Shown piece by piece: positions 13,891 through 14,805 of a stretch of 28,335 nucleotides of DNA. Numbering within the stretch: position 1 is the stretch's first letter; each line of letters opens with the position of its first letter. The stretch lies in the IMG/VR virus record IMGVR_UViG_2737471849_000009; one strand, written 5' to 3'. Position numbers and translations under genes: made by a program. The stretch comes from a virus. Lineage: Duplodnaviria; Heunggongvirae; Uroviricota; Caudoviricetes. A model generated the notes under the pieces. The model was not told the origin of the DNA, did not search any database, and worked only from the letters and a program-made list of their open reading frames with translations.

Positions 13891-14012
13891 ATGCCTGAAA
13901 AACGGTACAGGACGTTAAACGCGCTGGTGGTTGCGAATACTGGTCTTTCGGCTTGTATTTTTGTAAATCGATATATACTTATCTTGTGACCAGTAATGTC
14001 AGGGCAATTGAT

Positions 14013-14756
14013 ATGAATGAAGCTTGTTCTGTTGTTTTTGTTCATTCCCCGTTTGTTGTGCTCTTTGAAGGAAAAGAGCTCTCTCTGGAAAGTGGTAGTG
14101 CACTTCTTGTCAGGGGGGGAGCTGGATCGTTATTGCCCTTTTCGGAATGTTTTCGGCGAATAAGTCTCAGTGAATCGACAATTATCCGTTACCTGTTGTG
14201 TGGAGACGAAAAACAGGATGTAGTTTTAGTCCGGCAAATACCACGATATCTTTGCGTGAGTTTTCCCAAGGCAGAATTGATGGGCATCCTGATTGATTAT
14301 CTTTGTGAGGAAAAGATTCATACGGACAATTTAGCGGAAATGCTTTCCTTTTCGTGTCTGGCGTTTTTCTCATCAGAGAAAATGTTTTCGTCGTTTCTGA
14401 CCGCGTGTATTGGCAATATTAGTGACAGGCTTAGTGCATTGTTTCGTACGGACATTGCAGCAAACTGGACTCTGAGAGATGTGTCTTCGCGGTTATGTAT
14501 CAGTGAAAGTTTGTTAAAAAAAAGACTGAAAGAAGAAGGCACCTGTTTCAGTGAGTTGTTGCTTACAGAGAGAATGAGAATGGCAGCAATGCTGTTGAAT
14601 CAATCTCGTTGCGCCATCAACAGAATCGCTGCTCAGTGTGGCTATAATTTTACATCTTATTTTATCAGCGTATTCAGGAGTTATTTTGGTGTTACACCGG
14701 CAGGTTACAGGATGGCTGCATTCAATGAGATGAGTTTAAGTGTTACTCAAGAATAA
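14013..14756 (+). CDS. AraC-family transcriptional regulator (AppY/EnvY-like)
   Basis: 247 aa from ATG 14013; C-terminal AraC-type HTH (LRDVSSRLCISESLLKKRLKEEGTCFSELL ... CGYNFTSYFISVFRSYFGVTPAGY) resembling prophage-borne AppY/EnvY regulators; AT-rich upstream region and own terminator. Confidence 0.8.
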   Translation: MNEACSVVFVHSPFVVLFEGKELSLESGSALLVRGGAGSLLPFSECFRRISLSESTIIRYLLCGDEKQDVVLVRQIPRYLCVSFPKAELMGILIDYLCEEKIHTDNLAEMLSFSCLAFFSSEKMFSSFLTACIGNISDRLSALFRTDIAANWTLRDVSSRLCISESLLKKRLKEEGTCFSELLLTERMRMAAMLLNQSRCAINRIAAQCGYNFTSYFISVFRSYFGVTPAGYRMAAFNEMSLSVTQE

Positions 14757-14781
14757 TTGAATTTTGCACTCATTGAAAACA

Positions 14782-14805
14782 GGCTCGCTGCGGCGGGCCT
14801 TTTTT
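14782..14805 (+). terminator. Intrinsic terminator after the AraC-family gene
   Basis: Hairpin GGCTCGC-TGCG-GCGGGCC (one G-U pair) followed by T6. Confidence 0.5.

Follow-up and report, generated by a model that had tools for sequence, protein, structure and literature searches.

A putative accessory cassette for an AraC/XylS-family regulator between antiterminator Q and holin in a P27-like prophage

An open reading frame (ORF) for a transcription factor of AraC type lies between the late antiterminator gene and the holin gene of IMG/VR record IMGVR_UViG_2737471849_000009, a 28,335-nucleotide stretch of viral DNA (Caudoviricetes) that is called the window below. The original prediction had placed an AppY/EnvY-like regulator, carried as a self-contained moron, at 13953-14805. 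The locus raises the questions whether this gene is accessory cargo or part of the phage backbone, which known regulators its product resembles, and whether promoters of the host or of the phage would be its targets. Judged from its sequence, it is a moron, a compact cassette that lambdoid and P27-like prophages carry as an accessory gene, and its product probably acts on the host.

The cassette and its spread

For delimitation of the cassette, positions 12500-15400 were compared with related loci by blastn. Homology to phiP27, ETEC1738 and a lambdoid prophage of EDL933 halted at 13955. It resumed at 14780 in the EDL933 prophage (immediately past its tRNA-Arg gene), at 14794 in SerU-LTIIb, at 14809 in ETEC1738 and at 14840 in phiP27. 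The slot anchors in EDL933 (locus L012) were 24806-24882, equivalent to window positions 13879-13955, and 26280-26328, equivalent to 14780-14828. In an alignment of seven loci, the hairpin with T-run in the backbone segment on the left (Table 1) and the approximately 70 bp following it, which end with ...GGTTGCGAATACTGGTCTTTCGGCTTGT, were shared by all seven. Past ...GCTTG(T/C) the alignment split into two classes. In one, the AraC gene's AT-rich leader followed; in the other, the leader of a 198-bp ORF located ahead of methylase, tRNAs and stx2e (phiP27) or of methylase and tRNA (ETEC1738).

From these junctions and the ends of a cassette-only search, a unit of approximately 824 bp was therefore drawn. 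It is predicted to extend from about 13956 to 14779 and to consist of a 57-bp leader, the ORF and a 23-bp trailer. The flanks were shared by phiP27, ETEC1738, the EDL933 prophage and SerU-LTIIb, with other cargo or none between them, and the absence of the cassette from the same slot in related phages bore out its predicted status as accessory cargo. The slot is the first one for cargo downstream of the late antiterminator Q, corresponding to the stx2e site in phiP27 and the probable psrB site in the EDL933 prophage. G+C content was 0.40 for the cassette (leader 0.30, regulator ORF 0.42) versus 0.50 for the whole window and 0.565 for the holin gene; the cassette is thus AT-rich and distinct in composition from the adjoining phage genes, and its upstream region had originally been noted as AT-rich.

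The terminator at 14781 marks the right edge of the cassette, since homology to phages with other cargo or none resumes at 14780-14840. This intrinsic terminator had been correctly recognised at the end of the originally predicted interval. Its hairpin (-17.6 kcal/mol, z -4.1) provides the gene with a terminator of its own downstream, with the caveat that the 49-bp stretch is also 92% similar to DNA past the tRNA genes in the EDL933 prophage.

The approximately 70 bp after the left hairpin (13887-13955, …AAACGCGCTGGTGGTTGCGAATAC.GGTCTTTC.GCTTG) were near-invariant in the seven loci, which represent four upstream contexts and two downstream genes. This stretch might serve as an anchor for recombination, as a leader element or as a promoter.

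The coding sequence was assigned to 14013-14756 because the RefSeq start and the N-termini of homologues agree on the ATG at 14013. In the ORF list, a plus-strand ORF at 13953..14756 was counted as 267 amino acids (aa) from a TTG, with the ATG as codon 21. The encoded 247-aa protein was identical to RefSeq WP_001345622.1, which has its annotated start at this ATG and is named either 'helix-turn-helix domain-containing protein' or 'AraC family transcriptional regulator'. Its N-terminus MNEACSVVFV aligned residue by residue with the N-termini of YdeO, AppY, GadW, probable PatE and probable PsrB. The TTG start was dropped: it lacks a Shine-Dalgarno sequence and lies on the cassette junction, and the homologues all begin at the ATG position. 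That the start in the ORF list falls within 3 bp of the left junction is a coincidence. Two minus-strand ORFs within the regulator gene, at 14182-14373 and at 14318-14542, were set aside as spurious. The gene is intact in the window. The literature searched contained no mention of WP_001345622, and PADLOC gave no defence-system match for the regulator.

For distribution analysis, 5,426 complete E. coli genomes were searched with the cassette alone (13956-14779). It was found in 65 genomes, in all of them on the chromosome, and each match spanned query positions 1/2 to 820/824. Identity was at least 95% in 42 genomes and about 90.7% in the remaining 23. With a 1,251-bp query that included the backbone flanks, 813 genomes matched some part, compared with the 65 that carry the cassette. 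Carriers thus make up approximately 1% of complete E. coli genomes; many are from cattle, pigs and farm environments.

The identical protein was also encoded behind other antiterminators, namely a 273-aa PF03589-type Q (L003) and a DUF1133 Q-like protein (L004). Relative to the window, the flanks of these two loci differed by 5-12 substitutions per 100 bp, whereas the ORF differed by 1-2 substitutions (0.1-0.3 per 100 bp), all of them synonymous. The region of near-zero divergence coincided with the originally predicted coordinates 13953-14805. In IMG/VR, 39 loci encoded a protein at least 99% identical, and a recognised Q was located upstream in 37 of them. Five types were represented: P27-type Q with an ORF6N fragment (14 loci), a DUF1133 variant about 93% identical to the Q of L004 (13), a DUF1133 variant 78% identical (7), and Antiterm (PF03589-type) Q proteins of 250 aa (2) and 273 aa (1). 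Two loci had no recognised Q. Downstream, the gene was followed by a P27-type holin at about 180 bp, by further cargo, or by a class II holin 1.5-2 kb away. The distant alleles P0004 (82% identity) and P0012 (42%) were likewise located approximately 200 bp past a Q gene. These comparisons clearly show recent transfer of the near-identical cassette among unrelated lambdoid backbones that differ in their Q genes.

A second recurrent site for phage AraC genes of this family was the extreme genome end, after the tail-fibre genes (PatE, AppY). Examples were phage mEp332 (L018), Sakai Sp1 (L008) and IMG/VR loci L089-L099; the 30%-identity group in IMG/VR was located at contig ends.

The regulator and its relatives

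The protein is predicted to belong to the AraC/XylS transcription-factor family. Residues 158-233 matched Pfam HTH_18 (expectation value (E) 1.2e-13, 51.6 bits, cut-off 33.6) and HTH_AraC (E 3.2e-13, 49.9 bits, cut-off 26.6). As both matches exceed their cut-offs, the AraC-type ORF is not a chance reading frame, and the predicted 247-aa regulator was thereby confirmed. Its layout comprises an N-terminal domain (approximately residues 1-135) and a C-terminal double helix-turn-helix (approximately residues 140-235).

The best NCBIfam model was the YdeO equivalog NF007407, which matched residues 2-230 with 146.9 bits. Because this score falls under the equivalog cut-off of 348 bits, the regulator was considered a paralogue, not an orthologue, of YdeO (37% identity to the K-12 protein). 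The GadX model NF007432 scored 98.1 bits versus a cut-off of 500, with the match confined to residues 111-234. GadX, HilD and other NCBIfam models matched the C-terminal domain only.

In protein comparisons, full-length alignments were obtained with probable PatE (Sakai ECs_0287, 247 aa; 39% over 234 aa, 154 bits), GadW (about 35%, 36% by tblastn; 149 bits), YdeO (37% over 230 aa, 144 bits), probable PsrB (WP_000301797.1 of EDL933; 36% over 236 aa, 126 bits) and AppY (30% over 233 aa, 119 bits). AppY was the most distant among the full-length relatives tested. EnvY matched over the C-terminal 127 aa only (39%, residues 107-232), and the BLASTP match to GadX was restricted to the C-terminal 132 aa. 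Of the four proteins originally suggested for comparison, YdeO and AppY could thus be aligned over their full length and EnvY and GadX over the C-terminal part. The label 'AppY/EnvY-like' proved imprecise: the protein is an orthologue of neither, and YdeO, probable PatE, probable PsrB and GadW are closer. It is better described as a YdeO/PatE/PsrB/GadW-like protein, orthologous to none of them, and is assigned by similarity to the enterobacterial YdeO/GadW/GadX/AppY/PatE/PsrB group.

Among phage protein families, PHROG phrog_1450 ('unknown function') was matched in full length (E 1.8e-55, 189.2 bits), with residues 3-233 aligned to profile positions 10-247 of 254; the protein accordingly falls into this phage YdeO-like family, to which proteins of PatE/PsrB type also belong. 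By tblastn, full-length homologues at 30-40% identity were present in 23 phage records. Reviews put psrA (z1789) on OI-50/CP-933N. A tblastn search with the window protein returned no AraC-type homologue in the corresponding regions of re-sequenced EDL933 (1,625,001-1,685,000; L010/L011) and of Sakai (Sp6; L009), so that only probable PsrB could be compared.

For structural comparison, an AlphaFold (AF2) model was built from an 8-sequence alignment. The C-terminal domain of the model superposed on the GadX DNA-binding domain (3MKL) with a template modelling (TM) score of 0.91-0.93, a root-mean-square deviation of 1.0-1.2 Å and 42-43% identity. With phmmer against PDB sequences, GadX was matched with E 2e-22, followed by Rns, CsvR and ToxT. 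The same three proteins were the best full-length structural neighbours, at a weak TM of about 0.4 on a low-confidence model, and an Rns/ToxT-like cupin architecture of the N-terminal domain is only suggested by the model. The presumed recognition helices, SESLLKKRLKEE and TSYFISVFRSYF, were nearly invariant across YdeO, PatE, PsrB, GadW and AppY. We infer that the protein would bind AT-rich promoter DNA via its two helix-turn-helix motifs.

Target promoters and transcription

The cassette is probably a prophage moron whose AraC/XylS factor of the YdeO/PatE/PsrB group activates GadE-centred acid-fitness promoters of the host. Like its relatives in the group, the regulator would activate the host promoters of gadE, hdeAB and gadBC. 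This would raise the acid resistance of the lysogen and possibly touch other stress or virulence genes indirectly. Acid and stress genes are what the characterised relatives regulate, whether these are carried by prophages or by the chromosome, and the original interpretation of an AraC-family moron likely to rewire stress genes of the host is broadly right. According to reviews, the prophage-encoded PatE and PsrB activate gadE/hdeA and acid resistance (PMC10877973, PMC10057817), and it is by this route that PsrA and PsrB repress type III secretion (PMC10877973, PMC8565820, PMC10057817). AppY directly targets gadE (PMC10057817). With endolysin and head genes lost, few genes in the window could still be of use to the host, and the regulator would be among them.

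Several points weigh against an acid-fitness role. It is deduced from homologues that are only 30-39% identical. The PatE and PsrB genes used for comparison were assigned by their location (Sakai Sp1 and EDL933 prophage, respectively), not by locus tag. The regulons of the paralogues in the group partly differ, and AppY also controls hya, app and biofilm genes (PMC10057817). The N-terminal domain, which varies most among the paralogues and probably sets regulation, was poorly modelled by AF2 (predicted local distance difference test score 40-65). A consensus sigma-70 scan of 13887-14012 detected no promoter ahead of the regulator gene.

An alternative is a host-directed regulator with a regulon other than GAD/acid fitness. 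Its targets could be anaerobic or stationary-phase genes, in the manner of AppY, or genes for envelope, fimbriae or virulence, in the manner of EnvY, Rns and CsvR. The low identity to any characterised relative, the strongly divergent N-terminal domains and the pleiotropic regulon of AppY (PMC10057817) are consistent with such a regulon, as is the fact that the top full-length structural neighbours Rns, CsvR and ToxT are virulence regulators. The Rns/ToxT matches are weak, however, and the helices that contact DNA scarcely differ from those of PatE, YdeO, GadW, PsrB and AppY. These five are the nearest full-length relatives, and all of them converge on gadE/hdeA (PMC10877973, PMC10057817). A different regulon is accordingly the leading alternative, conceivable but clearly less probable than activation of the acid-fitness promoters.

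Transcription of the regulator bears on the remaining alternatives. The description as 'self-contained' holds for the 3' terminator; for a promoter of its own it is at most tentative. Upstream DNA specific to the cassette is limited to the 57-bp leader, and both the upstream terminator and the 70 bp following it are shared backbone. Read by eye, the leader contains a -10-like TATACT(TA) at 13974-13981, with 15 bp between it and a poor -35. The Shine-Dalgarno sequence, CAGGG at 14000-14004, is weak. The element TATACTTA at 13974-13981 may represent a -10 element of sigma-S type. One source of transcription would be a weak own promoter in the leader, possibly of sigma-S type or silenced by H-NS. 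The other would be Q-modified RNA polymerase that reads through the flanking terminators, which upon induction would put the regulator first among the cargo genes of the late transcript. In the lambdoid loci L003 and L004, no more than about 80 bp separate the stop codon of Q from the hairpin preceding the regulator; the Q-modified polymerase would therefore transcribe the regulator first after induction, as for stx. A late transcript is as plausible as an own promoter.

In a further extension of the late-transcript model, the cassette would not be a moron expressed in lysogeny but the first Q-dependent late cargo, one allele of an exchangeable phrog_1450 series in the stx slot. Induction or leaky read-through from pR' would then lead to a burst of a YdeO-like activator acting on the acid/stress regulon of the host. 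We regard this extended version as rather unlikely. If true, the lysis decision of the phage would be coupled to the stress physiology of the host, and the alleles, which are 36-86% identical to one another, would differ in target or signal specificity.

The gene could also be a silent passenger, intact but unexpressed (e.g. silenced by H-NS or lacking a promoter) and with no current effect on the host. The outcome of the promoter scan, the AT-rich DNA typical of H-NS targets and upstream terminators that block read-through are in line with this; the very low divergence of the cassette indicates recent spread and by itself says little on selection. The protein is nevertheless under purifying selection, as deduced from a ratio of nonsynonymous to synonymous substitution rates (dN/dS) of 0.33 between the regulator and the 82%-identical allele P0004. 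In addition, the ORF was intact and identical in many genomes and backbones, including the decayed prophage of the window, where neighbouring genes are deleted. A silent gene is thus doubtful, and expression with an effect on the host is preferred. Least probable is a phage-directed regulator of lysis timing, late genes or immunity. In its favour are the position of the gene within the late regulatory region, immediately past Q and ahead of the holin, and the joint transcription with late genes that would follow from antitermination by Q across the flanking terminators. On the other side, the cassette is dispensable (genomes matching the flank-containing query far outnumber its carriers), it is found with different Q genes and different downstream neighbours, and the characterised relatives act on host genes.

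Under the preferred reading as an activator of acid-fitness promoters of the host, the cassette extends a known theme and does not alter current understanding. Prophage-borne AraC regulators of this group are already well documented; AppY, PatE and PsrA/B are established phage genes wired into the acid-resistance and virulence networks of E. coli. The version in the window is an uncharacterised allele, at most 39% identical to any characterised member compared, and fills the slot that is also used by Shiga toxin genes. If the regulator raises acid resistance, strains of commensal and pathogenic E. coli would differ further in gastric survival. That it persists in a prophage stripped of lysis and head genes would exemplify domestication.

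Genomic setting and comparison with known systems

The features of the region between Q and holin are listed in Table 1. The window is assigned to a P27-like prophage integrated next to mlrA because it is near-identical to the prophage of E. coli E21845/O/A (L001). The L001 counterpart of the Q gene is named 'antiterminator Q family protein' in RefSeq.

Table 1. Predicted features around the regulator cassette, in window coordinates.
Feature	Position	Strand	Evidence
Q-family late antiterminator, 131 aa	12632..13027	+	PHROG phrog_79 'anti-termination protein Q-like', E 2.1e-51
Sigma-70-like promoter TTGACC-18-TATATT	13032..13061	+	Consensus scan, 10/12 matches
c4-a1b1 target	13055-13107	+	Rfam, 52.2 bits, above gathering score
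isrK-like RNA	13068-13142	+	Rfam, 79.4 bits, above gathering score
Terminator of isrK-like RNA	13122-13137	+	Hairpin, -9.3 kcal/mol
C4 antisense RNA	13165-13250	+	Rfam, 74 bits, above gathering score
Truncated ORF6N/antirepressor gene, 162 aa	13301..13789	+	PHROG anti-repressor families, best E 2.2e-77
Backbone segment, left anchor of cargo slot	13807..13955	+	blastn and seven-locus alignment
Terminator hairpin with T-run upstream of cassette	13865-13886	+	-12.4 kcal/mol
Cassette-specific AT-rich leader, 57 bp	13956..14012	+	blastn and alignment junctions
AraC/XylS-family regulator gene, 247 aa	14013..14756	+	ORF list, Pfam, RefSeq start, homologue alignment
Intrinsic terminator after regulator	14781..14806 (hairpin 14781-14800 and T-run)	+	8-pair stem, 6 G-C pairs
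Second terminator-like hairpin, just 5' of holin ribosome-binding site	14896..14917 (hairpin 14896-14911)	+	-10.8 kcal/mol
Holin gene	14936..15268	+	PHROG phrog_198 holin, E 1.8e-34

The sigma-70-like promoter ends 7 nucleotides before the start of the isrK match at 13068, a position that fits the late promoter pR', and we infer that it is the Q-dependent late promoter. The 'late promoter region' of the original prediction holds more than a promoter, and the immediate upstream neighbours of the cassette are the isrK/C4 module and the truncated antirepressor gene, the equivalent of which is flagged in RefSeq as a pseudogene without its C-terminus. In Gifsy-1 of Salmonella the order is antQ-isrK-orf45-anrP (PMC4825925). 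The order Q, isrK, antirepressor in the window matches it (PMC4825925), and the region was therefore identified as an IsrK/C4-antirepressor module in the place of pR'-tR'. A second isrK and C4 pair was located in the early region (7790-7866 and 7891-7978).

The placement of the cassette before lysis and packaging genes is correct insofar as it lies between Q and holin, but parts of the lysis and head modules further downstream have been deleted. Compared with L001, 982 bp are gone at 15237/15238, comprising the C-terminus of the holin, a second holin and an M15 endolysin; the holin gene in the window is truncated or fused by this deletion. A further 5.5 kb are gone at 18604-18611 (portal, protease, capsid, connectors and tail tube), where the flanking matches overlap by 8 bp. 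With these two gene blocks deleted, the prophage is considered defective for lysis and head. Both deletions were shared by no complete genome in the collection searched.

In the early region, the window also differed from L001 at 8393-8609: positions 9083-9909 of L001 (Rha-family regulator) are without counterpart in the window. Window positions 7747-8040 were 86% similar to 9088-9381 of L001, which suggests duplication or recombination of an ash/Rha segment. A search for tRNA genes in the window gave none. A 564-aa ORF on the minus strand (26005-27699) had no Pfam match and lies opposite the expected plus-strand gene for tail-tip protein J, which would run off the window end; it is probably a spurious antisense ORF.

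Among the known systems, PatE of enterohaemorrhagic E. coli O157:H7 (CP-933H/Sakai Sp1) is likewise encoded by a prophage and has exactly the same length of 247 aa. It could be aligned over the full length and has an AraC-type C-terminal domain with near-identical recognition helices. As reviewed, PatE activates gadE, gadBC and hdeAB and raises acid resistance (PMC10877973). It differs in its identity of only 39% and in its location at the far prophage end, after tail-fibre and invertase genes, instead of the slot between Q and the lysis genes.

PsrB, which together with PsrA forms the prophage-encoded secretion regulators of enterohaemorrhagic E. coli O157:H7, was represented by the EDL933 protein, the identity of which with z2104/psrB was deduced from its location. 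This gene occupies the same slot between the same two anchors, directly after a Q-like antiterminator, and can be aligned in full length. PsrB is reported to bind to the promoters of hdeA and gadE and to improve survival in acid (PMC10877973). Differences are the divergent allele (36% identity) and the slot in EDL933, which also contains a 198-bp ORF and two tRNA genes.

YdeO, the chromosomal activator of gadE in K-12 under EvgAS, has the same arrangement of domains and the MxxxCSV(I/V)F motif at its N-terminus, but adjoins safA and ydeP and is not located in a prophage. In the DLP12 region of K-12, AppY is similarly prophage-borne, can be aligned over its full length and regulates gadE and stress genes (PMC10057817), and EnvY has the C-terminal DNA-binding domain in common. 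Neither of them is located in the slot between Q and the lysis genes.

Stx phages and phiP27 (methylase, tRNAs, stx2e) likewise carry cargo between the terminator segment after Q and the holin, and share the flanking DNA. In contrast to these phages, the cargo of the window is a regulator instead of a toxin and is without tRNA genes. The Stx2k phage phiSTEC1575 has both types of cargo in the slot, with a 36%-identical AraC gene upstream of tRNAs and stx2k.

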